From Armatimonadota bacterium (GTDB lineage: Bacteria > Armatimonadota > Armatimonadia > Armatimonadales > Armatimonadaceae), in contig JAYUUO010000081.1 of the NCBI GenBank assembly GCA_043754515.1, positions 1 to 47,466 of the forward strand: a stretch of 47,466 nt of DNA. The letters run 5' to 3'. The notes beneath the pieces are model-generated. The model searched no databases and was not told the origin of the DNA. It saw only the letters and a list, made by a program, of their open reading frames with translations. This document shows positions 7,113 to 38,335 of this stretch, in pieces (positions within the stretch are counted from its first letter, which is position 1; each line of letters begins with the position of its first letter). The position numbers were made by a program, and so were the translations under genes.

Positions 7113-9386
7113 TTACAGCTCGAACAGCGTCATCTGATGCTTCGCATCCTCTTTCGCCTTGCGTTTCGCGCCCGTCAGCGGCTTGGGGAACAGGCGGTCG
7201 AAGACGTCTTCGCCGATGCCCGCCTTCAATCGCTCGGCGAACTTGTAGAGCTTGGTCTGGTAGTACTCGATGTCCTCGTCCCGGTCGTATTCGGAGGCCA
7301 GCGCGAGCGACTTGTCCTCGCGCTGGTATAGAGTCGCGTAGTCGCCGACCTGCAAGCCCTTCATCGCCTCCGCGTTGCGCTTTCGCGCCTCCGACTTGAA
7401 CGTGTTCTCCGTTACCCGCTCGCGCCGTGCGATCTCCTCAATGCCGAGTTCGCGGTTCTCGATCTTGTCCAGTATCTCGCTGTAGCACTCGGCCAGTGCC
7501 TCCTTATTCTCGGCGAGTAGCAGGTCAATCGCGGCGTTCATGAAGCGACGCCCGAACTTCTCGTCCGCGCGGGATCGGAGCGACGAGCCTTTGTAGACCT
7601 TCTTGCCGTCGTAGCCGACCAGAACATAATTTTTCGCCTTGAGCGACAGCATCACCGCGTAGCGGCCGTCGAACGCCAGCCGGATACCATCCGGCAGGGT
7701 TGTGCCGATGCGCCCGATGAACGCCTCGTCCGAGTCCGGCGCGCTCCCCTCCGGCATCTGGAAGTACACGCCGTCGGTATCAATCTCGATCACCGTCGCG
7801 CCCTGCGTTTCGAGTTCGGCGGCGATCTGCTTCACGATCTCCTGCCCGATCTCGGTCACCTTCGCAGCGGCGACGTAGTCGTTGAAATGAAACGGCGCGC
7901 CGAGATACCCGTAGAACGAGTTGATGAGCAGTTTGTACGAGTTCTGCAAGCCATCCCAGTACGACGCGGCTTTGATATTCTTCTTGTCGGCGTACTTCTT
8001 CGCGAGATTCTTGCCTGTGATGCGCCGCTTCTTCAGTTCGTCAAGGAGCGGCAGGAACAGGTACAGCGTGTCGGTCGAGGACGTAACCCGGTTCGTGAGC
8101 ATGATGCTCGGATACAGCGATTCAACGTCGGCTTTCACTATGTTTCGGAGCAACCCGGTAACGCGTATTTCGGTGTAGCCGCCCGCGTAGGGCACGGGTG
8201 CCGACCGACGCGCGACCGCCTGCCCGCGCGCCAGATACGCCCGCACGAACAGCGAGTTGATCTTCTCGCCGCTCCCGGTCACGCAAACGTTCTGGTACGA
8301 GTCCGGCACCATCTGCGTCTGGTAAAACTCGGTGGGGCAAACGACCTCCGCGAGCCGTCGCGTCTCGCGCACGTCACCGAGCGCGTACCTTCGCACGAGA
8401 TCCGGGTCGGCTTTCCATGTTTCCAGAATCACAGAACGATCTAAAATCACCCGGTCTGGCTCGGAGATGTGGTACGTCGCCGCGCACTCCTTCAAGCCGT
8501 ATGACCCGATTTCGCCCCGCGCGACATCGAAGCGTTGCGTCGCGAGTAGCGTATCCACCACGTGCCGTCCCCAGACGTAGTGCGGCACGAACGGGCGTGT
8601 GTTCGCCCCGATCGCGCAGTTACGCTCGTTCCCGGTCGCCATCTCGGAGCCGTCGCGCCCCCAGTTCAGCGTCACTTTGAGTGCCTTCGCCCGCGTCCGA
8701 ATCCACGGCAGATCGAAGGCGATCAGGTTGTGCCCCTCGATCACGTCCGGGTTCCAATCGGCGATCAGGTCACCGAGGTGTTGGAGCATCTCGCGCTCGT
8801 TGCCGACCAAGACTTCCTCGTGCCCCCGGTTGTCGGACGCGACGATCATGAAGATGCACGCACCCGGCGCGACCGGCGACAACTCCGACGTCTCGATGTC
8901 CACCTGCATCCGGCGGACGTCGGGGAACGCCATGCCTTTGAAAAGCGTCACGCCCGCACCGACCATGTAATTCTTGATCGCGGAGCCGTAGTCGAGGTTA
9001 TCGCGCCGCTCGTCGCGCAGGATGCGCCGGCCCTCCAGGAACGCCTTCCAGTGGTCGAAATAGACCAGGTGCTTGTAGCCGTTCGTGCCCTCCAGCACCC
9101 GCGCCGCGTGGACATCGGGGAGCGGGCGCTCGTCCTTCATGATCAGCCACGGGTAGAATGGCACCGTCTCCAAAACGGTGTCTTCGGTGTCTTTAGGACG
9201 CGTGAACAAAGTCGCGGTCGGGGGGGTAGCGCGGGTGTCGGTCTCCACGGCGACGATGCGCTGGCGGCTATCGGTGCCATATAGCGCGGCATCCAGATCG
9301 CGCTTGGTCGGGACGGGATGGCCAGCGTCGGGCGTCAAGGCGGTGGGTTCGGGGAAGTCGGCGGGTTCGGTTTGCACGGCTTGCAT
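7113..9386 (-). CDS. polB: Family B DNA polymerase with 3'-5' exonuclease
   Basis: ExoI VDIET, ExoII GHNLIAFDLPW, ExoIII YALGD; polymerase motifs DVESLYPS, KLLINSFYG, IDTDG. Likely start ATG 9386 (MQAVQ); the ORF extension to 9971 overlaps + strand genes. Confidence 0.93.
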   Translation of the reverse strand: MQAVQTEPADFPEPTALTPDAGHPVPTKRDLDAALYGTDSRQRIVAVETDTRATPPTATLFTRPKDTEDTVLETVPFYPWLIMKDERPLPDVHAARVLEGTNGYKHLVYFDHWKAFLEGRRILRDERRDNLDYGSAIKNYMVGAGVTLFKGMAFPDVRRMQVDIETSELSPVAPGACIFMIVASDNRGHEEVLVGNEREMLQHLGDLIADWNPDVIEGHNLIAFDLPWIRTRAKALKVTLNWGRDGSEMATGNERNCAIGANTRPFVPHYVWGRHVVDTLLATQRFDVARGEIGSYGLKECAATYHISEPDRVILDRSVILETWKADPDLVRRYALGDVRETRRLAEVVCPTEFYQTQMVPDSYQNVCVTGSGEKINSLFVRAYLARGQAVARRSAPVPYAGGYTEIRVTGLLRNIVKADVESLYPSIMLTNRVTSSTDTLYLFLPLLDELKKRRITGKNLAKKYADKKNIKAASYWDGLQNSYKLLINSFYGYLGAPFHFNDYVAAAKVTEIGQEIVKQIAAELETQGATVIEIDTDGVYFQMPEGSAPDSDEAFIGRIGTTLPDGIRLAFDGRYAVMLSLKAKNYVLVGYDGKKVYKGSSLRSRADEKFGRRFMNAAIDLLLAENKEALAECYSEILDKIENRELGIEEIARRERVTENTFKSEARKRNAEAMKGLQVGDYATLYQREDKSLALASEYDRDEDIEYYQTKLYKFAERLKAGIGEDVFDRLFPKPLTGAKRKAKEDAKHQMTLFEL

Positions 9387-9450
9387 TGTACCGCGCCGGG
9401 GGTTCGGCTGGGATATACTACAAGCGACAGTTGGAAAGGAACCCGATCCG

Positions 9451-9791
9451 ATGACCTGGGAGCAGATTCGTACGACGTACCCCGACCGATGGGTGCTGAT
9501 GGAAGTCGCTGAAGTCGCACGTCGAAGGCGACCGGTGTCTACGAGGAGTTGAGCGTGCTTGACACCGTGGATGAGAACGCCGACATTTTTCCGCGCTACA
9601 GAGATTATGAGAAGCGGTTCCCGGAGCGGGAGATTCTGTTTATACACGGCTCCCGCGTTGATCCCGATGTTCGCGTCATCAACCGCTTCGGCGCGAAGGT
9701 ATGCCGTGACTGCGATTGGGATACACGGCGGGTTGCCGTTCGTGACGCTGGACGTTTCGCAAGGTGGAGCTACCGTTACCTTGCAAAATAG
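9451..9791 (+). pseudogene. Frameshifted small protein of the type usually paired with a retropepsin-like protease
   Basis: MTWEQIRTTYPDRWVLME (from 9451) and VYEELSVLDT...REILFIHGSR lie in different frames; shift(s) at ~9505-9540. Confidence 0.6.
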
Positions 9792-10089
9792 GTTACTCGC
9801 CACCGGCTGTTCGCGGACGATTTTCGCGACAGACAGCGTCTCGGGTGTCGGAGTCGTGCCGGACGCGGACGCCGGTCTGCGCCGGATGGTCGGCAGCGAC
9901 GGCGTGGAGCGGGTAGTAGAAGCACAAGCCGACGCCGTTATTATGGACGGTATCCGCGTGGAAAACATCACGGTCCAACTCGGGACCCTTGACTACGGCG
10001 TCGCCATAGATGGAATCGTTGGCCTCGACTTGCTCCACGCGACACGCGCGACGATTGATCTTGACATGCTCGAACTGCGCGCGAAATAA
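9706..10089 (+). CDS. Retropepsin-like aspartic protease, catalytic Asp apparently lost
   Basis: GLPFVTL, LLATGCSRTIF (expected LLDTG), DYGVAIDGIVGLDLL; GTG start at 9706. Confidence 0.75.
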   Translation: MTAIGIHGGLPFVTLDVSQGGATVTLQNRLLATGCSRTIFATDSVSGVGVVPDADAGLRRMVGSDGVERVVEAQADAVIMDGIRVENITVQLGTLDYGVAIDGIVGLDLLHATRATIDLDMLELRAK

Positions 10090-10707: not shown

Positions 10708-10781
10708 TCATCTGCCGTTCAGGAAGCCCGAAACGTCCGCCTTCAGTTTCGAGAGCGACGGCGAATGAATATACATCATGT
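10708..10781 (-). pseudogene. Orphan 3' end of an S10 serine carboxypeptidase gene
   Basis: Minus strand 10779-10708 reads MMYIHSPSLSKLKADVSGFLNGR*, resembling the GHMMY...PSL.KLK.D...F C-terminus. The expected His codon reads GAC and similarity stops there. Confidence 0.7.
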
Positions 10782-10971: not shown

Positions 10972-13650
10972 CTAAGAAAGCTGAACGCGATTAACCCGGC
11001 TGGTCTCTCCCTCCAAGGAGATGTGGTATCGATTTGGGAAACGGTTCGCAAATGTTTCTTGATGTGAAACAATAACCACGCGCTCTAGAGTCTCTCCCAA
11101 TCTATGCATGACATCTGCCATGCCTTCCAGGTTCTTAGGGTCTAGACTGCCGAACCCCTCATCGATCATGACGGATCGAAGCCTTGTTTGCCCACCGACG
11201 ACACATTGGCCCAATGCGAGAGCGAGTGCCACGCTGACACGAAACTGTTGTGAACCAGACAGACCTTTGAGCAGAATTGGCTCCCCTGGTAACATCGTGT
11301 TTGCACATACGAGATTCAGAGCGGTGTTCGCATTGCGCCCTTCAATCGCTTTGGATTCCGAAAGGTGTAAAGTTCCTCCAGAAAGTTGCGCAAGCGTTTC
11401 GTTTGCCTTGCAGGTAATTAGCTGTTCCGCATTGCGGATCAATTCGCGTTGCAAGCCTTCATTCCCCAAGCAATCAGCCAAAAATTTCCATAAATCGCGA
11501 TCTCTGATAGTATCGTCGTACTCCTTTTGCACAACTTCACGCTCAGATTGTTGGCGTCGTAGTGCGTCACGATGGTTCAACGCACTCCGTTCAGCAATTT
11601 CGGTGTCGCGGGCTATCTCCTTGGCGACATACAGTTTCTCCTCTGCTTCAGGTAGCCCTAGCCGTGCATCATCGGGAAGAGACTCCATCTGGCGGGAAAG
11701 ATTGGTAGCCTCACTACGTTTGACCGTGAGTTCATATTCGGCATTGTCAAGACCCTCTAACATCTGTACGGCTGTCTGAGTCATTTCACACTCAGACTCT
11801 AATCGGGCGAGTTCGGTCTCAACCCTAATCGCGGGGTGGTCACGCCAAGCTGCAGGAAGTGCTCCGGTATCTTCACTCAGAGTTCGCGAACGCTCTTCGA
11901 CACCGGCTTGCCACTGATCAATCACCTGCTCAATGCCCTTCCAATCTTTGTGTTTTTCGCGCCAACGTTCGGCACTTTCAGCAAGTGATTTCATAGCCTG
12001 CAGGTCTGCCGGAGTTGGGTAGCCCTCGATCTCGCCACTGAGCCTCTTACGAGTAGCTTCATTAACCCTGCTCTTGGCTTCGTGAGAGAGCTGCCATTTT
12101 CGTTCGCATATAATCCTCGCCGATGCCGCGTCTTTTGTGGCGTTTTCCCATGCTCGCACAGATGCTGAATATTTACTGTCAGCGGCTTTAAGTTGTTCAA
12201 CCGCTCGTGTGAGAGATTCTTGTAGCTGACGTTCGGTACTGGTCGCAGTTGACAGTGCCTTACTAGCATTCAAAAGGTTTCCTTGAAGTGCCTGTAGTTG
12301 TTCTTCCCTCATCTCTGGGGTGAGAGGCTGACCACATATTCGACACATAGCCGCTTCGCCGCCATCAACAAGAACCACAAGTCTCTCTTCGATGTCTGTT
12401 TTAACACCTTGGCATCGTCCCTTTTCCTCGCGTGCTCTTTCCAAAGCCGCTCGTGTTGTTGTCTCGGTTTCGATGTACTCTCTTCCCGAGACATCAAACG
12501 AATCGAGTTGTGGCGCGTCTGCCTGAGCAGACTTGTTTTTCCAATCGCTTGTCGCCGTAAACGCTTCGTTACGTGCGTTACAGAAGGCTTCTACCGCAGG
12601 GAAGAATCTTTCTGCAAGATCAGTCTTGTTACACTTCTTCTCCAATGCCTCTCGAATGACGCCAACATCGACGGTCACATCTAGACCAAGTTCATGAACA
12701 AGATCGTGACACATCACACTTCGTTGTTCAAGATGTCGTGCGTGTTTTGCTTTGGCACCAGTTAATGCGTCGTGGGCTTTGAGTACTACACGGAGTACAG
12801 GGAGAATAGATGCCAATTCCCTATGCCGCATGGCGTGTTTGCGTACTGCATCCGCTTCGGCTATCACAGTCTCGATCTGCGATATCTCTCCGCTCAGTGT
12901 CGTGAGTCGCATCTTCCAATCGTCGAAATTCTTCGCATGGGTTACCATCACCGCACAGTGGTCCCGCATCTTTTGTGCCGACGAATATTCTTGCGAGGCG
13001 ATTTCGGCGGCAGATATAGCATTAGTAATCTCCTCATCAGTAACGACAGGGAGTGAGTTACCAATCAATCTTAAGGCAAAGTTTTTCACCACACCGGTTA
13101 ACCCGGCTTCACGCTTACTTGCAAGATCACACAATATTTCATAGTCGCGAAGGTTCATAATACGTTTCAGCAACTCAAACCGGCCTTTGGGGTCAGCCTT
13201 TACGATGCTATTCTCACCATTCTGTGGCAAGAAAACTGACATGGTGAACGACTCGTACTTGAGCCCAAGGATTTGTTCAATATGTCCAGTGCATTCGTCG
13301 CCTTCCGAAATCGCATGCCAGTTAGCGCCATCCCAGCGTAGTAGTTTTCCACTTACCGAGCCGCTCTTCCGCTTAATTCCTCGTTGCGACCTGTACAACA
13401 CTCCATTTGTGGAAAACTCGAACTCCACACTAGCGGCGTCGCTCTGGGTATTTACAAGCCCACGAGCGTTCTGTCCACCATGGCGGTGTTGCTTGAACAG
13501 AGCGAACGTGATTCCGTCAAAGACGGAAGATTTGCCTGCACCGTTATCTCCTGACAGCATCCATAGGCGGTTGTTGTCAGCCGAGAAGTCAAACTCCGCT
13601 TCATCTCGATAGGACAGAAAACCCTTTAATTTTAGCTTCATAGGTACCAT
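10972..13650 (-). CDS. sbcC: Rad50/SbcC-family SMC-like ATPase
   Basis: Walker A GDNGAGKSS, Q-loop FLPQ, coiled coils, zinc hook CRIC, signature LSGSQ, Walker B/D-loop IDEGFGSLD, H-loop VSH. Confidence 0.93.
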   Translation of the reverse strand: MVPMKLKLKGFLSYRDEAEFDFSADNNRLWMLSGDNGAGKSSVFDGITFALFKQHRHGGQNARGLVNTQSDAASVEFEFSTNGVLYRSQRGIKRKSGSVSGKLLRWDGANWHAISEGDECTGHIEQILGLKYESFTMSVFLPQNGENSIVKADPKGRFELLKRIMNLRDYEILCDLASKREAGLTGVVKNFALRLIGNSLPVVTDEEITNAISAAEIASQEYSSAQKMRDHCAVMVTHAKNFDDWKMRLTTLSGEISQIETVIAEADAVRKHAMRHRELASILPVLRVVLKAHDALTGAKAKHARHLEQRSVMCHDLVHELGLDVTVDVGVIREALEKKCNKTDLAERFFPAVEAFCNARNEAFTATSDWKNKSAQADAPQLDSFDVSGREYIETETTTRAALERAREEKGRCQGVKTDIEERLVVLVDGGEAAMCRICGQPLTPEMREEQLQALQGNLLNASKALSTATSTERQLQESLTRAVEQLKAADSKYSASVRAWENATKDAASARIICERKWQLSHEAKSRVNEATRKRLSGEIEGYPTPADLQAMKSLAESAERWREKHKDWKGIEQVIDQWQAGVEERSRTLSEDTGALPAAWRDHPAIRVETELARLESECEMTQTAVQMLEGLDNAEYELTVKRSEATNLSRQMESLPDDARLGLPEAEEKLYVAKEIARDTEIAERSALNHRDALRRQQSEREVVQKEYDDTIRDRDLWKFLADCLGNEGLQRELIRNAEQLITCKANETLAQLSGGTLHLSESKAIEGRNANTALNLVCANTMLPGEPILLKGLSGSQQFRVSVALALALGQCVVGGQTRLRSVMIDEGFGSLDPKNLEGMADVMHRLGETLERVVIVSHQETFANRFPNRYHISLEGETSRVNRVQLS

Positions 13651-14891
13651 TATAAGAGACTTTCCTCAGACGTAAACAATTCTTCAAGCATCAGCAATAA
13701 TCTCTCCCTGCGCGGATCGGTCGTATCCAGTTTACGCTGGAGGTATTCACGTGCTATCTGTTGTGCGTCCCCCGAATCTTGCTGTCCGAAAATTTCCTCA
13801 ATTTGCACTTCGCCAGACCCTGACTTAGCCCTCGCATCAGTTTGGTAAAGACGTGGGAAAAGAGTGCTGAGGCGCCGTTGTGCTGCTACGTAATCGTCTT
13901 GACCCGGTAGATAATGGATAGTAGCCTTTACCAAAACGGCTTCCAGCTCGCTTCGCGGACGATCACCCCATTCGCGCTCAATACGGTCAAGATCTTTCGC
14001 GTGGTCGTTGATTTCTGTCATAAGAAAGGGAGACGATGGTAGCCGTAATAGTTGTGGATCTTTAACACGTCCAGCCCGATTGATCTCGACGAGCGTAACA
14101 CTTTTCTCATCATCCCTCTCTCCTGCGTCAAGACTCTCAACCGAACCGCAGTACCTCATCCAGGGGGCATTATGTACGACCTCTTGCGGCTTATGAATAT
14201 GTCCAAAGGCTCCATACGCCCAGTATGTAGGCACATCGCTCTGCTCGAATACCACGTCTTCGTTCTCACTCAGCTTATATCCATTGCGCGTCGTTACCCC
14301 ACGTACCAGAATGTGACTGACTAAAATGGCGGCAGCATCTTTCTCAACGGCGGGACGGACTCGCTCTGCCATGAACCGACTGACCCGTTGAGCTTTGTGA
14401 GCATTCTCGCGCCCGATCTCCTCGAACGGTAAATCACGCAACCAAGAAGCCCCAGGATAAGGCATCAGAACAAACGGGTGAACTGCGTCCGTCTTATGAT
14501 CATGCAATCTAACGATCTTCGCAGTATTCGCCAGGTGAAACCTTCCCGGCGGTGACACTCCCCCTTTATCCACACCGTCGGGTATAAGGTTGAATGCACT
14601 GTTGAGTGATTCACAAAACGAATCATTATCGTGATTCCCTCGTACTGCAAGAATTGTCCCTCCTCGCCGGAGAAAAGGAACAAAAATTTGTTCGATGTTT
14701 CCAATCGCTTCTTTTAGACCGTCACGGGTCAGACGGTCACAGAAGAGGTCCCCCGCGATTATCAAAACGTCGACCGAATACTCTTCGAGATATTCTGCGA
14801 CACGCCTGACATTCTTCAGAATATCGTTTGCACGGCAAACTTCGCCTAGACGATGCCCCATATGCCAGTCACCTGTGTGTAATATTCGCAT
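13650..14891 (-). CDS. sbcD: Mre11/SbcD-family metallophosphoesterase nuclease
   Basis: MRILHTGDWHMG, AGDLF, GNHD, SH, FGHIHKPQ, YCGS; stop overlaps the sbcC start. Confidence 0.93.
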   Translation of the reverse strand: MRILHTGDWHMGHRLGEVCRANDILKNVRRVAEYLEEYSVDVLIIAGDLFCDRLTRDGLKEAIGNIEQIFVPFLRRGGTILAVRGNHDNDSFCESLNSAFNLIPDGVDKGGVSPPGRFHLANTAKIVRLHDHKTDAVHPFVLMPYPGASWLRDLPFEEIGRENAHKAQRVSRFMAERVRPAVEKDAAAILVSHILVRGVTTRNGYKLSENEDVVFEQSDVPTYWAYGAFGHIHKPQEVVHNAPWMRYCGSVESLDAGERDDEKSVTLVEINRAGRVKDPQLLRLPSSPFLMTEINDHAKDLDRIEREWGDRPRSELEAVLVKATIHYLPGQDDYVAAQRRLSTLFPRLYQTDARAKSGSGEVQIEEIFGQQDSGDAQQIAREYLQRKLDTTDPRRERLLLMLEELFTSEESLL

Positions 14892-14919
14892 AATACATTC
14901 TCCACTTCTCTGCTTTTGT

Positions 14920-16881
14920 TTAAATATCCCCGAAGGTTGATATATCTTCCGTTTCGCGGCCCGGTTCGTTACGCCCTATTCCGATATTTCTTTGGAGCGG
15001 TGAGGTGGTTATGTCAGCTTCTTCCTTCCGCATAGCCCAGATAGGAAAAGGAACATGCAAATACATGGGCTGGCGGAACCCGCTTTGCATCACGAGTTTC
15101 TCGTTCGGGCGCAGTCCTTCGGCGCGACGACGCGTGGCTTCTGAAAGGGTACGCCAGACGTCGGACCGCAATTCTACGCTACCCGTTTGCCCTAACACTT
15201 TCACGGCGGCGTTCTCCACCACCCGTTCGGAAACCATTGATGCCTGTTGTTGCGCCCCTAGTAGAATAACTCCCTGCGAGCGCATCTCGGCAGCTACGGT
15301 TTCCACAAGTTTGGTGATCGGGTCTTTCGCCCCGCGCGGGGCGAAGCGGTTCAACTCGTCTAGCACGATGAGGTAGCGAAGTCCGGGAACCGCCTTCGCG
15401 CCAGTGCGACTCTCAACCACCTGTCGTAAAACCGACGCTACCACGAAGCGTTGTAAGTGTGGTACGCCCGATAAACCGTTTAAATCAACGACACAAGGGT
15501 CGGTAATATCGGTTTGTGTAACATCGAGTGGATTACCGTCAATACCGTCTACGCGTAGCACACCCCGGCTTTCGTGAAGCAAAAGTTTTATACGTCGTTG
15601 CACCTTCAGAATTGTCGCCCGATGGTGTTCTCCCCCCAGAGCCTCTGGCTGGAGCCATTCCCTGAGATCAGCGAACGTTTGAATCGCTCTGTCCCGTCCT
15701 TGTGGAGCATCCGTGCGGAGTGTTCTCGATTCTACGCCGTCCTCGTCTACAGAGACATGAGTCAGCTTTTCCTCAATGTCGTATAAAACCGTAAGGAAGT
15801 TATCATTTGAGGTATCTTCTGCGGAAAAGAGATACAGAAATAATCCGCGCTCAATAATGTTCTTTAGCGACCAGCTGTAAGGAGTGACGTTCCTGTTTCC
15901 GGGGCGCCCGGTGGGGATCGGTTCGTTTCCGTTTTTTTGCCTGGGCGCGAAATAGCGAACATTCTCGAATGGTTTCGGCTCCGGCACCCCGATCTCTTGC
16001 CATGCCGTCCCGTGTGCCCCAACGTCAAAACCCCGGTTCGTATAATCCAGATAGAATAGGTCGAAGTTTTTGACGTTGAAAATGATGGGGACAGGGCGTG
16101 GCAACGTGTCTACGTTGGGCGTCTTCTCTCTCAGATCGCGGGCGTGACGAAGCAACATATAAACGACCTGCAACAGGAACGACGACTTTGTGGCGCGTCC
16201 CGCCGCGCCGCTGACATTCATGTGTCCGCCATTGCCGCCGAGAAGATAATCCAGATCGAGACAGCCGGGACCAGCGAAATGTGTGCCGCCGTTTTTGATC
16301 AGACCGACGGGGAGGCGGTTTTCTTCGCTTACTTCATCGATCCCATATGCTTTTGCCGCCGCCTCTGGTCCCGCAAGGCAGACTTTGCTTCGCTCACGGG
16401 GCGGTGCCAATCGCTCTGGATCGGCCCGTAGGATTACTGCATCGGCGTAAGTTATCCCTTCAGCTTTATAGGGTGGCTCGTCAGACAAATCGCCGTCAAA
16501 CTCGTCAATCTCCTGCCCCATATCGCGCCGTCTAGAACAACGATGTACTTCCTCTACAAGGGCAAAATACGTGACCGATTCGCCTGCACACTCTGACTCT
16601 GTTGTAACGATCTGTGTCGCTTCGACGCTAACTTCTTCGGGAACCCAGAAGTGGAAACGCGACGACGTTGCCTCCTGACGTGGCGGGGCACCAACACGAC
16701 CGACGACAGTTCTTCCCTCTTCAATAATGGCTCCCCGGTTTCGCCTCTCGGCGGGGTTTATTTCGAATCCATTAACTAAAGAGACCTCCCCCGCGCCGAG
16801 CATATCTGCAGGATTACCGATCATCTGTGTCCAGACCGCATCCGACCCGGTATCACCTATTTCATTCTCTTTCTCGTTCAT
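14920..16881 (-). CDS. herA: HerA-family ATPase/DNA translocase, bacterial type
   Basis: N-terminal HAS-barrel-like region (VGRVG...FHFWV), variant Walker A HMNVSGAAGRATKSS, FNVK, Walker B IVLDELNRFAP, RSQGVILLGAQQ. Start ATG 16881 after GAGAGGA. Confidence 0.88.
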   Translation of the reverse strand: MNEKENEIGDTGSDAVWTQMIGNPADMLGAGEVSLVNGFEINPAERRNRGAIIEEGRTVVGRVGAPPRQEATSSRFHFWVPEEVSVEATQIVTTESECAGESVTYFALVEEVHRCSRRRDMGQEIDEFDGDLSDEPPYKAEGITYADAVILRADPERLAPPRERSKVCLAGPEAAAKAYGIDEVSEENRLPVGLIKNGGTHFAGPGCLDLDYLLGGNGGHMNVSGAAGRATKSSFLLQVVYMLLRHARDLREKTPNVDTLPRPVPIIFNVKNFDLFYLDYTNRGFDVGAHGTAWQEIGVPEPKPFENVRYFAPRQKNGNEPIPTGRPGNRNVTPYSWSLKNIIERGLFLYLFSAEDTSNDNFLTVLYDIEEKLTHVSVDEDGVESRTLRTDAPQGRDRAIQTFADLREWLQPEALGGEHHRATILKVQRRIKLLLHESRGVLRVDGIDGNPLDVTQTDITDPCVVDLNGLSGVPHLQRFVVASVLRQVVESRTGAKAVPGLRYLIVLDELNRFAPRGAKDPITKLVETVAAEMRSQGVILLGAQQQASMVSERVVENAAVKVLGQTGSVELRSDVWRTLSEATRRRAEGLRPNEKLVMQSGFRQPMYLHVPFPIWAMRKEEADITTSPLQRNIGIGRNEPGRETEDISTFGDI

Positions 16882-16894
16882 AACATACTTCCTC

Positions 16895-18013
16895 TCATAG
16901 TGACGCAACCCGATAAAAACCGCGTGTCAGTCGCTCGATGCTTTGAAAACGCGCACCCAGAACTTCCTCAGCGCGGCGGATCGGTTCCAGAGTCACGGCA
17001 GCACGGCCGTAATAGGGATCACAGGTCACTCGCCGACAGAGCCACCCGGATAATCGGTTCACGAAGTCTAGGTCGCAGTGGGTGGTGTCTTCAAAGAATG
17101 ATCGCATCATTCCTACCCGCACTACTCCGCCCAGAGGGTCACCGCTTCCTTCCTTAAGACGCAAGTACCATGTGGTTATATTCATCGCATGCTTGTTGGA
17201 GCGATAAGTAATCAGAGGTGTTCTTTGTCCTGGCTTTAAATCATAAACGAGACGCCAGCCATCCCTATTCAGGAGACCAGTATTCGCGTGCGTTTTGATA
17301 ATGCCAAACAGTGGAGCGGTGGCATGCTCGGGCGTAGTTTTTTGCTCCAAAGGTCCGTCTACCAGAGTCGGGGTAGAGATGCCAACTGAGGAAACCATAT
17401 CGCGCTCGTGGCGGAACATTTCTTCGCGAGTACGGCTACGCGCATTTTCGCGCATCCATCCGATATTGAAAGGGTCTTCCCCTTCACGCAGGGGGCGGCT
17501 AACTAATAGGCGAATATTTTGCGCCGAGAGCGCGGTGGCGAAACGTTCGATCTCATCCCAAGCGAACAGATCAGCCATCAAAGAAACGACAACTTCCACG
17601 GAGCGCGATTCGGCGCAAAGAAACTCGGCATTTTCGCCACTGCTTCGTGCGGCATGCATGGCTACCGCGCCGACCTGAGCCAGCCGAAGCGGGACTGCAA
17701 ACCCTCCCGGCGCAATGAGGTATGCCACCGCGCTCCCTACATCCTTGCCGTCCACGAAGCGGGATGGGAGCCAAGCGATCTGTCTCGCCACGACACTCTT
17801 CTCCGGTGAAGCATTGATAGCCCGCCACCTAGATAGCGGGATCTCGTAGTCACATCCTATAGCATTGTATTCACCGTCTCCCGGTTCGTCCGCAACGTCC
17901 GCGGTGCCAGGTGGTGATGCAGAGCGGAAATCCGGCGCGTTGCTTTCCTGTGAACGTCGTGCCCCATGATCATGCAGAAAACTCATGCCGGATGCGGCTA
18001 ATGGATAGCGCAT
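16895..18013 (-). CDS. nurA: NurA-like nuclease
   Basis: Two DG motifs (FVDG, LVDGPL), GIIKTH, LKPGQRTP, WYLRL, GVVRV, PI..AE; directly upstream of herA. Confidence 0.75.
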   Translation of the reverse strand: MRYPLAASGMSFLHDHGARRSQESNAPDFRSASPPGTADVADEPGDGEYNAIGCDYEIPLSRWRAINASPEKSVVARQIAWLPSRFVDGKDVGSAVAYLIAPGGFAVPLRLAQVGAVAMHAARSSGENAEFLCAESRSVEVVVSLMADLFAWDEIERFATALSAQNIRLLVSRPLREGEDPFNIGWMRENARSRTREEMFRHERDMVSSVGISTPTLVDGPLEQKTTPEHATAPLFGIIKTHANTGLLNRDGWRLVYDLKPGQRTPLITYRSNKHAMNITTWYLRLKEGSGDPLGGVVRVGMMRSFFEDTTHCDLDFVNRLSGWLCRRVTCDPYYGRAAVTLEPIRRAEEVLGARFQSIERLTRGFYRVASL

Positions 18014-18690
18014 GAAATATCTCCTTCCTTTTTCCGCAACGCCTCGAGGCGCTGACGCATCACTGCCCCGCTAACCAGAAAATCTGTTGCGAGGCGGTCT
18101 TGCCGTGCCACATTAGATCGCGCGGTGAGCGCGTCCTGCCTCATGCGCAAAATGTCTTCGGGTACCAACAGGTGAGCGGCAAAAGCATTTGCCTCGCGTT
18201 CCCGCGCTTCCAAATTACTGTCATCTTCCCCGTCGCCGCCGCTACTTGCCGGGTTAAAACCATCGAATAATCCGGGACGGAATGCTTCAGGGCTATCTCG
18301 TACGCTCTCCCGCCAGTTTTGTAGCGCGGGTCGAAAATGCAGAAAGAGGTGCCCCAATTCATGCGCCACCGAGAACCGTCGCCGTGTCACAGAGTCGTTC
18401 TGGTTGACGAACAAAAATGCCATGTCACCTACCGCGTACAGGAAACCCGATAGCGGTTCGTCCCGATTCCTTGCAAGGATTGACAAAGGTTCTCGTAAGA
18501 CCCGCCGCCGTGTCAGGAATGTTTCCGCAACACCTGCAGTCAATCCGGGTAATTCCACGCACGATATAGCGAACCGCTCTAACACAGGCGCGAGGGGGGC
18601 AACAGGAAAAATTTGGGATGGAGGTGGGACATCTACCTCATCATAAACGGATAAAACTACTCGCGCCCAATCACCTCTATCTCTCATCAT
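17998..18690 (-). CDS. ImmA/IrrE-family zinc metallopeptidase, stand-alone
   Basis: RRRFSVAHELGH (HExxH), EREANAFAAHLLVP, F.VS..VM..RL. Confidence 0.92.
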   Translation of the reverse strand: MMRDRGDWARVVLSVYDEVDVPPPSQIFPVAPLAPVLERFAISCVELPGLTAGVAETFLTRRRVLREPLSILARNRDEPLSGFLYAVGDMAFLFVNQNDSVTRRRFSVAHELGHLFLHFRPALQNWRESVRDSPEAFRPGLFDGFNPASSGGDGEDDSNLEAREREANAFAAHLLVPEDILRMRQDALTARSNVARQDRLATDFLVSGAVMRQRLEALRKKEGDISCAIH

Positions 18691-19310
18691 TTCTCTCCGC
18701 TCTTGTCGCCAGAAGGTCTTTTATCGTTTCGTAATCGTTCCCGTCGTGCGGCGGCGAGGCGGAACGTTCCTTCACGTTCCATAGCCACGGCAAGTAACGT
18801 TTCCTGCACAAACCGTACCACTGATACTCCGATGCCCTGACCTACCTGTGCTACACGTGTCAGGAGTGTGCGGGTGTCGCGCTGAGTCAGACTGGTAGGA
18901 ACCTGCTCATCCCCCGGTAGAGACTCCAGTCGGTCGGCAATACGTGAAATAATCACATGTTCCGCAGGCTGCGTCATTTCAGTTGGGGCATCACTGCGCA
19001 GACGCACGGCAACATCTCGCCATGTTACAGGGGGGACGGGAAGCTCTACTGCAAACTGACGGTTCTCCGCGTTTAAACCGGTCAGGCTGCGCACCAAGGG
19101 AGCGGAAAAGGTCTGCGATGCCGCCGCCACTACCCGCTCTTCCGTTTGATGTTGTTCCTCGTATGCCAGATGCGTTTCCCATATGGCATCTACAAGAATA
19201 GGACTATTCTTGGCTTCAGCAAGCAGATTTGCTTGTTCCTCCAGATCGCCCGAATCCACCGCGCAAAGATAACGGAGCAAAAACAGTTCTTTAATGTCTT
19301 GTGAGATCAT
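18687..19310 (-). CDS. Hypothetical cytoplasmic protein, candidate anti-sigma factor
   Basis: 207 aa; ATGA overlaps with both the sigma and peptidase genes; helical, no TM segment; RLAAARR near the C-terminus. Confidence 0.7.
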   Translation of the reverse strand: MISQDIKELFLLRYLCAVDSGDLEEQANLLAEAKNSPILVDAIWETHLAYEEQHQTEERVVAAASQTFSAPLVRSLTGLNAENRQFAVELPVPPVTWRDVAVRLRSDAPTEMTQPAEHVIISRIADRLESLPGDEQVPTSLTQRDTRTLLTRVAQVGQGIGVSVVRFVQETLLAVAMEREGTFRLAAARRERLRNDKRPSGDKSGEK

Positions 19311-19999
19311 CTGGTTGCTCCTGTGTTGATGGCCGACCCGACACGGGGACGAAGCATCTCACGCTCTTCGGTTGATATCGAATACTTTAGCCGCGTCAGG
19401 GCGCGATGTAGGCGTACCCGTACCGTTCCTGGTAGAACCACTTGCCCGCTTTTTGAATCTGTCAATTTTTGCGCCATTTCCTCGCTACTATTGCCTTCCA
19501 GAACTATCCCCTGGATGAGGTCGCGGTCTGACTCGGAGCAGGATGCCAGTACCCGTTCCACCCACAAAGATCCAGTGACGTCTCGCTCCGTTTGCTGTTC
19601 GCTCTGGATACGCTCCCAAACGCCGGATATGGTGTCCCCCGACCCACTATCACCGGTTTCAACAATCCGCTTCTTGTTCTCAGCAAACAACCGCTCCTTC
19701 CATTGCTTTGCGCAGTTGTTGGCGATACCCAGAATCCATTGCCGTACTGTGCCCCGGCTCGGATCGAACCGGGACGTTTTAGCGAAGACTACTTTGGCAA
19801 CCTCAACTAACAACTCGCGGGACGCTTCGTCGGGACTTAAACCGAGAGGCTTGATGATAGGACGCACTATGCTTTTCAGGACAGCGATGACACTGCTTTC
19901 GTTTTGTTGCCACCAATGAACGATGAAATCGTTTTTGCTTTGTTCTGAATCGTCCAGTGGTAACGAACTGTTATATTGGTATGAGTCTTTTAAATGCAT
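19307..19999 (-). CDS. ECF-type sigma-70 factor
   Basis: Region 2 (RFDPSRGTVRQWILGIANN) and region 4 (EGNSSEEMA...GTVRVRLHRALTRL). Confidence 0.88.
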   Translation of the reverse strand: MHLKDSYQYNSSLPLDDSEQSKNDFIVHWWQQNESSVIAVLKSIVRPIIKPLGLSPDEASRELLVEVAKVVFAKTSRFDPSRGTVRQWILGIANNCAKQWKERLFAENKKRIVETGDSGSGDTISGVWERIQSEQQTERDVTGSLWVERVLASCSESDRDLIQGIVLEGNSSEEMAQKLTDSKSGQVVLPGTVRVRLHRALTRLKYSISTEEREMLRPRVGSAINTGATR

Positions 20000-22946: not shown

Positions 22947-24308
22947 TCATCGGTTTTCCGTGATGATTACCTCCTGACGGTCTTTCGCCACACAGACCCC
23001 GTTTTTGACGACGTAGCATTCCACATAATGGGGCCCTGCGAATGCCGTAGGTTCTTGGATCGCGCGCACATTTCCGCGGGACTCGATCTGGCCCCGAATG
23101 CAGTCATTCCGCCGTGCCTCATCCCCGTTGTTTTTTATCTTCCAGTAGATCCGGACTGGCTCAGGAACGTCGCACTGCGTAATTTGAAACTCCATGCGGC
23201 GTCCGATCTGTACTTTGCTCCCCGAACTACTCAGTTTATAGTCTCGGAAGCCGTGCTTCCGCATTACTCGCCCCGTAATGCGGACTTTATATTCCGGCTG
23301 TATGGCGACCGCAATGCCATGGTCACTCAAGTCTTCCTCGGTGTCGCGGTAAGAAGCAGGTGGGAAGAATGCCGATTTGACCAACCCGCTCGATTTTTGC
23401 GCCGCGGGTTCTTCGGGGAAAGCATCCCCGAAAATCTTGCGCCACTTGCGAACGCTCTCCGGCTTATCCTGCTCTAGATAGGCGTCATCAATCCACTCGG
23501 CATACCGGATGATCTGGGCGCGGAAGTTGGAGTATTTGTCCTGATCCCACCTGTCACCGAAGTTTTCGCCCGTCCCGCTCGGGTCAAGGATGGTAGGCAT
23601 TATGACGTTAACATGGACATATTCACTGAGGCGATTCATCACGGTACGGAGCGTGGTTGGGACATCCGCGTAGCAATTCGGCTCCGCTAAGAGTGCGGCA
23701 TCATTGACCCGGCCACCGAGGAGCACATTAAGAACGACCGATTTTACGTCGAAACTTTTCTTATAGTTTCTCAGATACTTCACGAGGCGGATTACCTTGA
23801 CCAGATGGTAGTTCGAAGTGCGGTGCTTCTCTTCCAACCAATCATTATATCCTTCGGGATTGGTTTCTTCATAATTGTTCTCGTGTCGGTTAGTCACATA
23901 GCGTTTCTCATGCCGTGCCAAAAAGGGCACGACATCTATGTGGAAGTCGCCCGCGTAATTCACGGTGACACATCGGGTTTTACGGCTCACCTTGTCCCTA
24001 TAAACGGGACTGCCCCGGAGACAAGTGTACAGATTCTGGACGTAATCTTTCGCCTCCCATCCGCTGACCTCGTCCAGAAAAAATAGAATATCCGCGTCAA
24101 AATCTTCATAATCTTGCACCGGCCTGATGATGGTACGGTGTGCGTAGGAGCCTTGCGATATCGTGTCGCCGAAATATGTGGCAAACATATCGCTCCCCCG
24201 TAAAAAGTTTGTGACCGCGTTCACGCTCGCATTGAGGCGCGAAAGTCGGGTGGCGTTGAGGTTGACCTCGTTTTCGAGGAAGTCTTTAAAGTTGTTTACT
24301 AGTTTCAT
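22947..24308 (-). CDS. CBASS CD-NTase (SMODS) with a C-terminal AGS-C domain
   Basis: QGSY...DFDADI...HIDVVP, TNPEGY, VIRLVKYLR; C-terminal YWKIKNNGDEA..RGQI..EPTAFAGPHYVECYVVKNG. Confidence 0.9.
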   Translation of the reverse strand: MKLVNNFKDFLENEVNLNATRLSRLNASVNAVTNFLRGSDMFATYFGDTISQGSYAHRTIIRPVQDYEDFDADILFFLDEVSGWEAKDYVQNLYTCLRGSPVYRDKVSRKTRCVTVNYAGDFHIDVVPFLARHEKRYVTNRHENNYEETNPEGYNDWLEEKHRTSNYHLVKVIRLVKYLRNYKKSFDVKSVVLNVLLGGRVNDAALLAEPNCYADVPTTLRTVMNRLSEYVHVNVIMPTILDPSGTGENFGDRWDQDKYSNFRAQIIRYAEWIDDAYLEQDKPESVRKWRKIFGDAFPEEPAAQKSSGLVKSAFFPPASYRDTEEDLSDHGIAVAIQPEYKVRITGRVMRKHGFRDYKLSSSGSKVQIGRRMEFQITQCDVPEPVRIYWKIKNNGDEARRNDCIRGQIESRGNVRAIQEPTAFAGPHYVECYVVKNGVCVAKDRQEVIITENR

Positions 24309-25504
24309 TGTTCATTTACCGTCAGAGCGTATTCAAAGGTGTTAAACATTCGGTCGTAGATACGAATGCCGGGTTGCACGTGGCGCATGAGACCGCGTCC
24401 GCAGGCTATGGCCGCCGTGACGGGCGCGGCGGGGAAGAGATGAATCGTTCGGAAAGACTTACTTCGCGCCTCCAAACCACTCAGAAAATCATGGTAGCAG
24501 TCGGTAAACGCCCGTAGCGTTGCTCGTGACCGGAATAGGTCTCGGTTGGGAGCGACGCCCTCCGGCCGGATCTCATATACCGGGCGACCATCAGCCACGT
24601 ACCCTGGTAATTCGCTAATATCGATTGACCCGCTCAGTGAGACGATCAAAATCACATCGGTGGAATCGGCCCCATCCCGCAGGAGCCTAGTGGTGAAAGT
24701 AGTCGGCTGTAAATCGTTCTGCCACTGCCACGTTTCGCCCTCTCCTCGGTGCTTCTGGTACAGGTCAGCGGGGATTTTATCGTCGATCGCATATCCGAGG
24801 TAAACAAGAAGGGGTATACGGGCGATGGCAAAGACCGACAGGTGCGAAATATGTTTTGTCCGCACCCCATCCGTTAAACGCATCAGAAACGAATCGATTA
24901 TGCTTTTTGCCGCTATCCAATAGGCAGTGCTAATCGTCTCCGGGTCAGGCAGTGACGACAAGTCAATCTCTATAGAGTGCCTATCAGCTGTGAGAGGGAA
25001 GTAGGCATAACGGTCGCCGCTGGCGATCACCGTCTGCATAGCAGTGTTCCGGGATAATTCAGGGACGGAGCCGCGCACCAGCCCGAGCATTCTAACCACC
25101 GCCGTTTCTTGAGACGGTTTCATCTCGGTCAAATGGCGGATTCGTGTTTCGTGCCGGTGCTTGAGACCGAGCAATCGCTCTTCCGTAAAATAGTCGCGTG
25201 TCGATGTGTCATCGACAATCTTATGGCACACCTGACACAACAACACGAGATTCTCGACGTCGTTGCGCTCACCAATCGGGACGGCAGACGCGCCACGTGG
25301 TGAGCCGGGAGTGTCCTGCCATCCGGCGATATGCGCCCTCTCCCCGAGATTTATGATGCTCTCGAAATCAGGCTCCTCTAGAAGGTAGTCATTGCATTTA
25401 GCGCACCGCCCGCCGGAACGCACCCATAGCAACAAAGTCTCTTTTTCTAGAATACGACGCTTCGGCTCGGTAGGCGATTTATTGGTATCTGCTCGCTTTC
25501 TCAT
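24305..25504 (-). CDS. CBASS HNH-SAVED effector (Cap5-like)
   Basis: CAKC, GERAHI, NLVLLCQVCHKIVD (HNH); HLSVFAIARIPLLVYLG, SLSG, IHLFPAAP..AIACG (SAVED). ATGA overlap with the CD-NTase. Confidence 0.9.
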   Translation of the reverse strand: MRKRADTNKSPTEPKRRILEKETLLLWVRSGGRCAKCNDYLLEEPDFESIINLGERAHIAGWQDTPGSPRGASAVPIGERNDVENLVLLCQVCHKIVDDTSTRDYFTEERLLGLKHRHETRIRHLTEMKPSQETAVVRMLGLVRGSVPELSRNTAMQTVIASGDRYAYFPLTADRHSIEIDLSSLPDPETISTAYWIAAKSIIDSFLMRLTDGVRTKHISHLSVFAIARIPLLVYLGYAIDDKIPADLYQKHRGEGETWQWQNDLQPTTFTTRLLRDGADSTDVILIVSLSGSIDISELPGYVADGRPVYEIRPEGVAPNRDLFRSRATLRAFTDCYHDFLSGLEARSKSFRTIHLFPAAPVTAAIACGRGLMRHVQPGIRIYDRMFNTFEYALTVNEQ

Positions 25505-28600: not shown

Positions 28601-28692
28601 CCGGGGGCGATGGTCGCGCCGCTCAGGATTTCGTAGCCAGTTTGTGCGAGCCAATCGAGGGCGGCTTCCTCTACCACGGATTCAGTGATCAT
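25609..28692 (-). CDS. hsdR: Type I restriction enzyme R subunit
   Basis: [54 protein letters not shown]. Confidence 0.96.
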
Positions 28693-28808
28693 TGTTTTGT
28701 TCGTCCTTTTGCCGTGATGACAGTTTTCATACTACAGCTATTGTTTCAGATGGTGGGCGTGTCTGTCGAGCGATCGCCGTGTTTTCTGTGTACTACGAAG
28801 CGCAACGA

Positions 28809-32074: not shown

Positions 32075-33159
32075 ACCTTTTGTGATTCCTCGCTACGGGT
32101 CAGTATCTCGTACAATGCCGTATTGATGTAGTAGTTCGACCGACCGATCTTCTGCATCTGCAAAAAGCCGTCCGCCGTCAACAGTTCCAAATAGCGCGTC
32201 GCCGTTGGGCGCGACACCCCCAGCTCCCGCTCCAAAAACTCGATCTTCGTGTACGGGTGCATAAATAAATCGTTGATCAAATCCTGCGAGTAAAACTTGT
32301 GCCGACTGCGGATGCGCCGCTTGTAATCGCCGAACGCCCCGTTTATATCCTGCACCGTGATAATCGTCTGCCGCGCCGTTTCCTCAATCGCGTTCAGCAT
32401 ATACAAAATCCACGCCTCCCAGTCGTCATCATCCCGAACCGCTTGCAGGAGCCGGTAGTATTCGCTTTTAGTGCGGTTGATGGTTCGGCTCAAATACAAA
32501 ACTGGGATGTCGAGCAGTTCTTTCAGCACCAAATACAGAACGTTGATAATACGTCCGGTGCGCCCGTTGCCGTCGTAAAACGGGTGAATGCTCTCGAACT
32601 GATAATGAACTATCGCCATTTTTACCAATGGGTCGGCGTCGAGAAGCGCGTCCTCATTGATAAACCGCTCCAAATCCGACATCAGCGACACGATAGTGTC
32701 GTAGTCTTGCGGCGGCACATACACCGTTTCGCCAGTCTGGTCGTTTCGCAGTTCGGTCCCGGGAACGCGGCGAAAACCCGCGTGGTTATGTTCCAGCGTA
32801 TTCTGAATTTCAAGAACATGATTTACGGACAGAAAGCCGTTCTTATGCACCAGATCGTATCCGGCACGTAACGCCTGCGCGTAGTGGCGCACTTCTTTGG
32901 TCGCCGCGTTCTCCGCATATTCGGGGAACAGCGATTCGCGGTATAACTCGTCGTGCGTGGTCACGATGTTCTCGATCGCCGAACTGTCTTTCGCCTCCTG
33001 AAGCGTCAAGGAGTTAATTAGAATCGCCGGGTTGGGAACCGACGCGGACACGCCCTTAAGTTCCGCAAGGCGTCGCCCCGCGGTCGTTACCTTTTTTAAG
33101 ATAGCCGGTGTTTCCCACCGCGCTTGTTTCTCACGGATTATCGAATCAAGTTTCTCCAT
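32071..33159 (-). CDS. Fic-family protein (class II) with C-terminal HTH
   Basis: HPFYDGNGRTGR catalytic motif; SSAIEN inhibitory motif; LGVSRPTATRYL HTH. Start ATG 33159. Confidence 0.92.
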   Translation of the reverse strand: MEKLDSIIREKQARWETPAILKKVTTAGRRLAELKGVSASVPNPAILINSLTLQEAKDSSAIENIVTTHDELYRESLFPEYAENAATKEVRHYAQALRAGYDLVHKNGFLSVNHVLEIQNTLEHNHAGFRRVPGTELRNDQTGETVYVPPQDYDTIVSLMSDLERFINEDALLDADPLVKMAIVHYQFESIHPFYDGNGRTGRIINVLYLVLKELLDIPVLYLSRTINRTKSEYYRLLQAVRDDDDWEAWILYMLNAIEETARQTIITVQDINGAFGDYKRRIRSRHKFYSQDLINDLFMHPYTKIEFLERELGVSRPTATRYLELLTADGFLQMQKIGRSNYYINTALYEILTRSEESQKV

Positions 33160-33198
33160 CTCGCCTCTTCCCTGTTTAGTGCGAATAAAATGACTTCC

Positions 33199-36993: not shown

Positions 36994-37015
36994 GGCGAGA
37001 AGTTAAAGGGATGAT

Positions 37016-37543: not shown

Positions 37544-37583
37544 GGCAGGTAATATAGCCGTATCAACAACCAGACCTTTGCAT

Positions 37584-38312: not shown

Positions 38313-38335
38313 GGATTCGAGCATAGTCGTGGTGT

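Follow-up and report, generated by a model that had tools for sequence, protein, structure and literature searches.

The 47,466-nt stretch analysed here, referred to as the window, is contig JAYUUO010000081.1 (C81) of an Armatimonadota genome (GCA_043754515.1, G000). On its minus strand, between 10972 and 19999, it carries a seven-gene module that is real, intact and mobile. The module encodes an extracytoplasmic function (ECF)-like sigma factor, a protein that is probably its soluble anti-sigma factor, an M78 peptidase, and the DNA-end enzymes NurA, HerA, SbcD (Mre11) and SbcC (Rad50). Our reading is that it is a mobile cassette that operates its own switch and destroys free-ended DNA, and we give this reading a probability of about one half. 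By analogy it works like a cross of two known designs, CapP/ImmA and CalpL-CalpT-CalpS, driving a Deinococcus-type NurA-HerA together with SbcCD; that its first three genes form a sigma/anti-sigma/protease switch is likely.

The seven minus-strand open reading frames (ORFs) were recovered at the coordinates first given in the original prediction, which had been made from the letters of this DNA. In order of transcription they encode the ECF-like sigma factor (19307–19999, 230 aa), the predicted anti-sigma (18687–19310, 207 aa), the ImmA/IrrE/CapP-type M78 zinc metallopeptidase (17998–18690, 230 aa), the NurA-family nuclease (16895–18013, 372 aa), the HerA ATPase/translocase (14920–16881, 653 aa), the SbcD/Mre11 nuclease (13650–14891, 413 aa) and the SbcC/Rad50 ATPase (10972–13650, 892 aa). 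The junctions are as first described – four overlaps (4, 4, 16 and 1 nt) and two gaps (13 and 28 nt) – with the herA start taken as the ATG at 16881, which is preceded by a GAGAGG ribosome site; the longer alternative is a TTG at 16908. The G+C content at third codon positions (GC3) is 0.47–0.56 in the seven genes and has a median of 0.79 in the genome, where only 2% of 1,234 long ORFs have a GC3 at or under 0.58.

The catalytic motifs that had been recognised in the four enzymes were confirmed in all of them, and also in the peptidase. The window NurA and HerA have no match in Pfam, NCBIfam or PADLOC, and their identity rests on Protein Data Bank (PDB) matches and on relatives. The best PDB match of HerA is the HerA of Deinococcus radiodurans (drHerA; 7f6d_B, E 1.7e-50), and the next HerA entries have E values of 0.07 or more. 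The Walker A lysine, the catalytic aspartate and the Walker B DE pair are all present: K232, D274 and D508-E509 align with K175, D220 and D487-E488 of drHerA, which the structure paper names as catalytic (PMC9960219). In NurA, D88-G89, D219-G220, K240 and R337 are invariant in 40 alignment rows, and the profile built from these rows matches D. radiodurans NurA (7f6d_H, E 2.3e-11), with the invariant lysine and arginine aligned to drNurA K201 and R309 under an inferred 20-residue offset in the chain numbering. Two relatives of the window NurA, P0007 and P0036, pass PF09376. The D. radiodurans pair (PDB 7F6D; PMC9960219) thus provides the closest structural relatives of both proteins; a one-residue insertion in Walker A is common to the two HerA proteins and the K175, D220, D487/E488 and K201/R309 equivalents are kept, whereas here the pair is joined in one mobile operon with sbcD-sbcC and three regulators.

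SbcD scores 86.5 bits with TIGR00619, over the cut-off of 77.65, and carries the DWH, GDLF, GNHD, SH and GHIH motifs. SbcC has TIGR00618 as its best model (E 1.9e-46, under the cut-off); its Walker A, D-loop and H-loop are intact and it has a zinc hook at C436/C439. Its ABC signature reads LSGSQ and not LSGGQ, which is a trait of the family and not damage; the serine was seen in 18 of the 21 loci where the signature could be read. The archaeal Mre11 and Rad50 models score lower for the window proteins than do the SbcD and SbcC models. The original prediction of a complete NurA-HerA-Mre11-Rad50 machine therefore stands as to completeness, all four enzymes being intact; its comparison with the archaeal operon needs correction as to type, since the best matches are Deinococcus HerA and NurA and the SbcD and SbcC models. 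These matches and the intact motifs point to a bacterial-type machine that is apparently functional. The archaeal herA-mre11-rad50-nurA operon (PMC13748450) has the same four enzyme families, whereas the window sequences are bacterial in type. The order nurA-herA-sbcD-sbcC also occurs without the regulators, in five of eight distant NurA loci fetched from the host phylum, and NurA is fixed across whole families of the phylum in which this regulator-free order occurs. As the four-gene order recurs without regulators, the new part of the cassette is the switch and not the block of four enzymes.

The cassette had been proposed to be a self-contained unit, and its genes are indeed inherited together. 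Unlinked regulators in other genomes had been named as grounds for rejecting the proposal; linkage was found instead. In 25 loci found by way of HerA, all three regulators lie directly upstream of nurA in 20, are cut by a contig end in 4 and are absent in 1; sbcD and sbcC are present in 21, cut in 1 and absent in 3. All seven genes stand in order in 17 of the 25, a set that includes four long-read metagenome-assembled genomes (MAGs) with frameshifts. A scan started from the peptidase added four complete copies (L030, L032, L033 and L035), and the plasmids NZ_CP128402 (Candidatus Chlorohelix) and AP018313 (Aulosira laxa) each carry a complete cassette as well. In the peptidase profile scan, 71 of 80 loci (L036 and L039–L109 among them) lacked the predicted anti-sigma; as counter-examples to linkage these were rejected, being generic M78 proteins.

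Within 351 genomes of the host phylum, the predicted anti-sigma was found in 8 and a cassette-type NurA in 10, with the two adjacent in 7 of the 8. In 208 genomes of the family of the planctomycete Limnoglobus, the anti-sigma was found in 56, the cassette NurA in 55 and both in 47, against 14.8 expected if they were independent, though kin are not independent; the two were adjacent on one contig in 43 of the 47, one of these via a fragment. A 351-genome phylum sample around Limnoglobus gave no match beyond the centre genome. A close HerA was found in 3 of 31 genomes of the host's own family and in none of 3 congeners. In a quick tree from which drHerA itself was absent, the cassette HerA formed one long-stemmed clade relative to the other bacterial HerA sampled (31 of 43 rows, SH-aLRT 100). 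Pairwise distances of the sigma factor, anti-sigma, peptidase, NurA and SbcD track those of HerA (rho 0.69–0.87 over 22 loci, with kin again not independent). MAG contigs of Bacteroidales and Alcaligenaceae that are nested among planctomycetes may be mis-binned and were not counted as transfers. No NurA relative was found in viral contigs, and two distant HerA (22–29% identity) occur in phage records.

Variants of the gene set were also seen. In one genus-level group (L031, L139, L144 and L145/L146) the cassette retains only nurA and the genes for the sigma factor, anti-sigma and peptidase and sits at housekeeping sites, or else is split, and NurA persists without an adjacent HerA. A Streptomyces plasmid (NZ_CP134205, L028) carries a distant herA-sbcD-sbcC-nurA operon with a divergent ImmA/IrrE gene, beside a TIGR02678-80/DUF2397 cluster; it is an independent pairing of an M78 peptidase with NurA-HerA-SbcCD enzymes.

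The second protein of the cassette comes from a family without a Pfam name that forms 722 clusters at 50% identity; it is probably a soluble anti-sigma factor, as structural modelling suggests. The AlphaFold2 model of the protein (predicted local distance difference test, pLDDT, 87) has helices at residues 4–20, 23–33 and from 37 onward, giving an N-terminal three-helix, putatively sigma-binding part (residues 4–54), a small helical C-terminal domain and a tail with an LAAAR motif. Modelled together with the sigma factor it gives a complex score of 0.79, while the best of three controls gives 0.01; this mark was attained by 116 of 157 solved complexes and by 2 of 215 mismatched pairs, and the score may reflect likeness to solved ECF/anti-sigma pairs. 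The runs, for which alignments made in this analysis were used, agree in at least 76% of contacts, with a partner pLDDT of at least 63. In the modelled interface residues 4–54 lie on sigma regions 2 and 4, the regions that class I anti-sigma domains contact. The modelled placing of three N-terminal helices between the two regions would be a likeness to the class I pairs (RseA, RsdA, RsiW; PMC3597663), but these three are membrane proteins cut by site-1 and site-2 proteases and the window protein is predicted to be soluble. A natural fusion of the protein to an M78 peptidase exists (P0224).

Searches by sequence and by fold gave no name to this protein. It had no match in Pfam, NCBIfam or PHROGs, no helix-turn-helix (HTH) Pfam match at E ≤0.05 in 19 members, chance matches only in a PDB sequence search, and only unnamed clusters at 0.9 or above in the Atlas. 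Foldseek, with a threshold of E 0.001, matched neither the full-length model nor the C-terminal domain to any structure. The best VIA-align Z scores, 6.3 and 5.8, are in the range of common helical arrangements, and a match to PupR (Z 5.6, root-mean-square deviation (rmsd) 2.0, 53 aligned) was tied with unrelated helical proteins. A profile comparison with a sigma-RskA fusion was negative, and the P0224 fusion as query returned only two weak peptidase matches. Blank results from single queries carry little weight, because the protein was missed on the two plasmids by a single-sequence search but recovered from each with a profile.

The most conserved feature of the family is LAA(A/T)R, a median of 17 residues from the end: it is present in 116 of 132 rows, compared with 8.4 in shuffles, with A187 kept in 130 and R189 in 126. 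In the window the motif is L185-A186-A187-A188-R189 (18744–18758, minus strand), the proposed cleavage site and cryptic SsrA-like degron. The transfer-messenger RNA tag of the host ends in YALAA, and the host genome has clpX. A cut in this tail would expose an SsrA-like tag, as in the CalpL-CalpT-CalpS system of type III CRISPR. There, CalpL cuts the soluble anti-sigma CalpT inside LAAA, away from the sigma interface, exposing an LAA C-degron, and degradation of CalpT by cellular proteases frees the sigma factor CalpS (10.1101/2024.05.08.593097). Activation in the class I pairs similarly involves an exposed VAA or AAA tag read by ClpXP, the tag being VAA in RseA and RsdA (PMC3597663). The LAAA of the window protein (185–188) is also far from the modelled sigma interface; a cut there could still release the sigma factor, because an exposed degron would lead to degradation of the anti-sigma. 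We rate this degron step slightly better than even.

The cassette and the Calp system have in common a protease, an ECF-like sigma and a soluble anti-sigma, predicted in the case of the cassette, in one locus. They differ in that CalpL is a cA4-activated SAVED-Lon serine protease, whereas the enzyme here is an M78 zinc peptidase with no SAVED or Lon match; in that CalpT has MazF-like and DUF2080 domains, for which the window protein gave no match; and in that the switch here would drive nucleases encoded in the same operon, for which separate promoters are predicted.

The peptidase (PF06114, E 8e-18) has H110-E111-H114, E164 and R103 invariant in 20 rows, and its profile matches CapP (7t5t, E 1.3e-12) and IrrE (3dte). 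With the M78 peptidases of CapP+CapH, IrrE+DdrO and ImmA+ImmR (10.64898/2026.05.16.725639) it shares HExxH and the downstream glutamate, a conserved arginine that matches CapP R90, and a partner that is encoded next door and sometimes fused, as in capH-capP fusions (Lau 2022, 10.1101/2022.04.27.489752). CapH is cut at F82|R83 and DdrO at L106|R107, both just before an arginine (Lau 2022; PMC12828697). Here, by contrast, there is no C-terminal GAF domain, the part that forms the groove sensing single-stranded DNA in those enzymes, the partner is not recognisably an XRE HTH protein, and the cargo is NurA-HerA-SbcCD. The enzyme ends at 230 aa, its 20 aligned members have 196–275 aa, and the PDB matches cover the peptidase part alone. 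A GAF-less ImmA is reported not to be stimulated by single-stranded DNA (PMC12828697), and the inducibility by DNA damage that the original prediction had offered is not established for this peptidase.

The sigma factor scores under the family cut-offs (TIGR02937, 26.4 against 42.9 bits), while its close relatives carry sigma regions 2 and 4 (PF04542/PF08281) and the annotation of a plasmid orthologue places it in the sigma-70 family. A bipartite motif, [TCG]GT[ACG]A[CT][AG]-N16/17-[CG]AAN, precedes the sigma gene in 25 of 29 loci (200 shuffles: mean 1.9, maximum 6) and lies 20–47 nt from the sigma start in 24 of these 25. Because this pattern was derived visually from those very sequences, and several of the loci are closely related, where the motif lies is stronger evidence than how often it occurs. 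In the window it gives a predicted autoregulatory ECF-type promoter, P1 (20036–20063, minus strand; -35 TGTAACA, 17 nt, -10 CAAT), 36 nt before the sigma start, which was the second-best site when the window was left out of training; the top site (15513), antisense inside herA and not conserved, was treated as chance. A candidate internal promoter with a weaker match, P2 (14946–14973, minus strand), lies in the 3’ end of herA, 82 nt before sbcD. Upstream of sbcD the motif is found at a distance of up to 250 nt in 13 of 29 loci; for nurA and for sbcC the figure is 1 of 28 each. In its strict form it has 64 matches genome-wide with no evident regulon, and none of the ranked sites of this type lies upstream of the neighbouring defence genes described below. 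Counts of sigma-70 promoters and terminators are at chance level. A small DUF4258-like gene, absent from the window, heads the operon under the same motif in three loci and is divergent in a fourth (L005:639–935, L026:11431–11781, L120 upstream of 8826, L139:6125–6553).

The proposed mechanism would run as follows. At rest, the sigma factor would be held by the co-translated anti-sigma through its N-terminal helices, as modelled. Once activated, the M78 peptidase would cut the anti-sigma within the LAA(A)R motif of its tail, so that about 17 residues are lost and the protein now ends in LAA or AAA. ClpXP would read this SsrA-like tag and degrade the anti-sigma, as the examples of CalpT and RseA suggest, and the freed sigma factor would fire P1, amplifying itself, and P2 before sbcD, judging from the conserved motifs. 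SbcCD would then open blocked or hairpin ends and HerA would pump duplex DNA into NurA, in keeping with the established biochemistry of these families. The most likely purpose would be to degrade linear or broken invader DNA, with the fragments available to Cas1-Cas4 where cas genes follow. The general form of this proposal is more tentative – that ImmA/IrrE-family peptidases cut a soluble anti-sigma, unmask an SsrA-like tag and free a private sigma factor with positive feedback, so that at least 722 anti-sigma clusters switch on a mobile NurA-HerA-SbcCD that shreds invader ends and feeds CRISPR spacer acquisition where cas4-cas1 is appended.

If true, this would be a second, undescribed use of ImmA/IrrE peptidases, with an anti-sigma instead of a repressor as target, and would join two designs known only apart, the M78 peptidase acting on repressors and the protease/anti-sigma/degron relay. 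A further ECF class would be gained, for which the promoter is predicted, the cleavage motif named and the output defined, and the bacterial NurA-HerA-SbcCD enzymes would act as an inducible module that is mobile. The switch also makes it testable what activates GAF-less M78 peptidases. A 2026 review describes bacterial nurA as lacking stable synteny with herA and sbcCD-type genes, to which the cassette runs counter. The cassette fails membership of each named regulatory system compared. The main text of the ECF 2.0 classification (PMC7826278) has no IrrE, DUF955 or Peptidase_M78, and, as the original prediction had supposed, no published description of the seven-gene architecture was found in literature searches, whose coverage took in few subscription journals. 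The 24 sigma-bearing CapH/CapP loci of Lau et al. may overlap with the cassette's type of regulator.

The role of the output was considered from the genes around the cassette. ORFs within 6 kb of 29 loci were surveyed (162 ORFs: 142 scanned, 8 taken from annotation and 12, mostly near-duplicates or fragments, dropped; many contigs were short), together with 3 further loci. Named defence genes are found within 6 kb in 14 of the 32 loci and in none of 10 control loci. The controls were chosen around a distant NurA or HerA, with 100 of their 124 ORFs scanned and with L124 and L144 excluded. Genes for cas proteins are within 6 kb in six loci (L008, L014, L015, L016, L018 and L035), with cas4-cas1 starting 14 nt (L008) and 59 nt (L018) after sbcC; in G000, cas1 is on other contigs. 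The order in L008 and L018 recalls Sulfolobus, where one activator, Csa3a, turns on nurA and herA together with cas1 and cas4 (PMC5587795). The other neighbours, several of which we take to be defence genes, include Piwi, DndB, a DUF4011/MTES helicase, tRNA-guanine transglycosylase (TGT) with QueC or DUF6884, DUF4007 with phosphoadenosine phosphosulfate (PAPS) reductase, ThiF-JAB with multi-ubiquitin, and DUF1156/HEPN/TIR. A defence-tool run gave no named system, which had been suggested as a sign of novelty: with PADLOC-DB 2.0.0 (2023) five of the seven genes were unmatched, there being no model for NurA, HerA, SbcD, the sigma factor or the anti-sigma, and the matches of the other two were generic (capP/RmrA for the peptidase, LmuB/mad3 for the SMC ATPase). 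Of the two possible roles we favour defence, although it and repair need not exclude each other; that defence is the main role we hold to be an even bet.

Three features of individual neighbourhoods were noted. In L001 a long Piwi-domain Argonaute gene (16186–18510) immediately follows sbcC. TGT-like genes with DUF6884 or QueC recur beside the cassette in L004, L008, L025, L027 and L032, the reading of L004 and L025 being by eye. Next to the cassette in L004 and L032 stands another NurA-HerA pair, unrelated to that of the cassette.

A number of results weigh against a self-switching, DNA-destroying cassette. As to its output, 14 of the 32 loci have no neighbour with a defence name and 4 are ambiguous, and the cassette is present in about 27% of the Limnoglobus family, frequently with housekeeping genes around it, a pattern in keeping with an inherited repair function. 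As to its unity, partial cassettes exist without sbcCD (L011, L013, L023), ending at nurA (L031, L139, L144) or without regulators (L024, L142). As to the switch, the characterised M78 substrates in the work cited are all HTH repressors, the GAF-less state of the peptidase leaves a DNA-damage trigger unsupported, and the fold searches did not single out anti-sigma domains. The residue before the arginine of the tail motif is threonine in 26 of 132 rows (LAAT-R), which makes a poorer tag, and AlphaFold2 places the motif in a long helix (pLDDT about 67), whereas proteases need an unfolded site.

The alternative that survives best keeps the same switch and changes the output to repair: SbcCD and NurA-HerA would be an inducible accessory end-resection kit that supplies RecA with 3’ tails, and with it the host or the element could survive breaks caused by drying, irradiation or its own restriction enzymes. 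We consider this a serious possibility, though one with odds clearly below even. End resection by NurA-HerA is known from archaea and Deinococcus (PMC9960219), repair genes are under IrrE control in Deinococcus, the regulator-free four-gene order is fixed by lineage in other families of the phylum, many cassette copies lie among housekeeping genes, and no AddA was found over the cut-off in G000 (92.7% complete; one family tested). The spread of the cassette is patchy, as the distribution of close HerA within the host's family and genus shows; unlike the 10 control loci, it sits on plasmids and integrated elements beside CBASS (the cyclic-oligonucleotide-based anti-phage signalling system), restriction-modification (R-M), Mrr, prokaryotic Argonaute and cas genes; and CapP-type regulators mostly head immune operons. 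These points argue against a repair output.

An improbable alternative is that the second protein is not an anti-sigma at all: it would bind DNA as a repressor, as CapH, DdrO and ImmR do, and be the substrate of the peptidase, with the sigma factor a passenger activator. The precedent of the M78 repressor targets is in its favour, and Lau et al. report 24 CBASS systems with capH and capP beside a sigma-70-family gene (10.1101/2022.04.27.489752). One Atlas cluster at 0.85 has HTH_31 in 13% of its members, which is a lead only, and the C-terminal domain bears a weak resemblance to small bundles that bind DNA (for the 8-kDa domain of Pol X, Z 5.8 and rmsd 3.2 with 71 aligned). The lack of HTH matches, the strong modelled interface with the sigma factor and the bipartite -35/-10 type of the conserved upstream motif all speak against a repressor. 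The gene order does as well – the cassette regulators are co-oriented with the operon and overlap in all complete loci, while capH and capP are divergent from the operon they control.

The mobile island of the original prediction is an integrated element of about 44.4 kb. It spans 10782–47466 of the window and continues in contig C122 of G000 to 7843, the end of C81 overlapping the start of C122 by 98 nt. Its left end is marked by a 13-bp attachment (att) core at 10769–10781, and the same 13 bases are found at C122:7831–7843; the cassette ends 190 bp from the left att site. The element is inserted in the 3’ end of an S10 serine carboxypeptidase gene and brought a recoded replacement end. The displaced end (10708–10781, minus strand) and the recoded copy are identical at 44 of 63 bases and have nearly the same C-terminal peptide. 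The stretch C122:4210–7704 holds a tyrosine integrase, beside the right end, and a large serine recombinase. The region from 9.6 to 40 kb of the window has no substantial match in three congeners (82–88% complete), which share the flanking polB and epimerase genes at 72–83% identity. Public contigs branch at 10752–10781, with a depth of 25.8 to the left and 15.8 on the cassette side. A 47-nt record of depth 10.9 leaves the window there, its other letters being those of C122 from 7844 onward after the 13-bp core; this record of an empty site is weak by the rule of the tool used, having 30 and 17 letters on its two sides; it may have runs X1 and X2 as its source, and its depth is not a share of cells. 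The att structure stands regardless of it. No tRNA was found in the window and no att repeat within the window alone, its partner copy being on C122. No relaxase or type IV secretion gene was found among the ORFs scanned, several large ORFs being without a family match.

The cargo of the element includes CBASS, a type I R-M system with SoFic and an AlbA protein, and Mrr; CBASS and the R-M system, whose proximity had been pointed out, are 3–15 kb from the cassette. That the cassette serves the life cycle of the element (ends formed in excision, transfer and integration, or exclusion of competitors), with the peptidase acting like the ImmA that controls ICEBs1 excision, is very unlikely: the cassette does occupy the extreme end of the element, it is also present in a related element from a different genus (L121), and a Thermus HerA-like ATPase is reported to be used in DNA donation (PMC5365140), but the backbone genes are shared, among the cassette loci compared, only by L001 and L121 (one genome), the element has its own HTH genes, and most cassette copies have no recombinase within 6 kb.

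Other features of the element and its surroundings were as follows. The CBASS has two genes (22947–25504, minus strand), an HNH-SAVED effector and then a CD-NTase with an AGS-C domain; no cap2 or cap3 was seen with them. The type I R-M system (25609–35040, minus strand) consists of hsdM with an N-terminal HTH, hsdS and hsdR, and is interrupted by SoFic and a Schlafen AlbA_2/HATPase protein. A backbone block at 35490–39651 (minus strand) encodes an HTH protein, an Mrr-like nuclease, YdjM, a DNA-binding protein and a replication O-like protein, and is shared with L121 (310–6455), where the cassette lies beside the same genes at 37–50% identity and a serine recombinase. This shared block may define an undescribed element family of the host family. 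G000 may also hold sister elements; three other contigs (C149, C259 and C51) carry integrases about 53% identical to that of the element. A 1070-aa ORF inside the element (40487–43699, plus strand) has no match in Pfam, NCBIfam, PADLOC or PHROG. To the left of the att core, a small ORF and an aspartyl-protease-like ORF matching PADLOC PDC-M08B (E 4.6e-31) lie at 9549–10089 (plus strand), a pair that was not found in the congeners searched. The family B DNA polymerase gene at 7113–9398 (minus strand) is a host gene, about 85% identical in congeners, and the 952-aa ORF listed for it is over-extended at its 5’ end.

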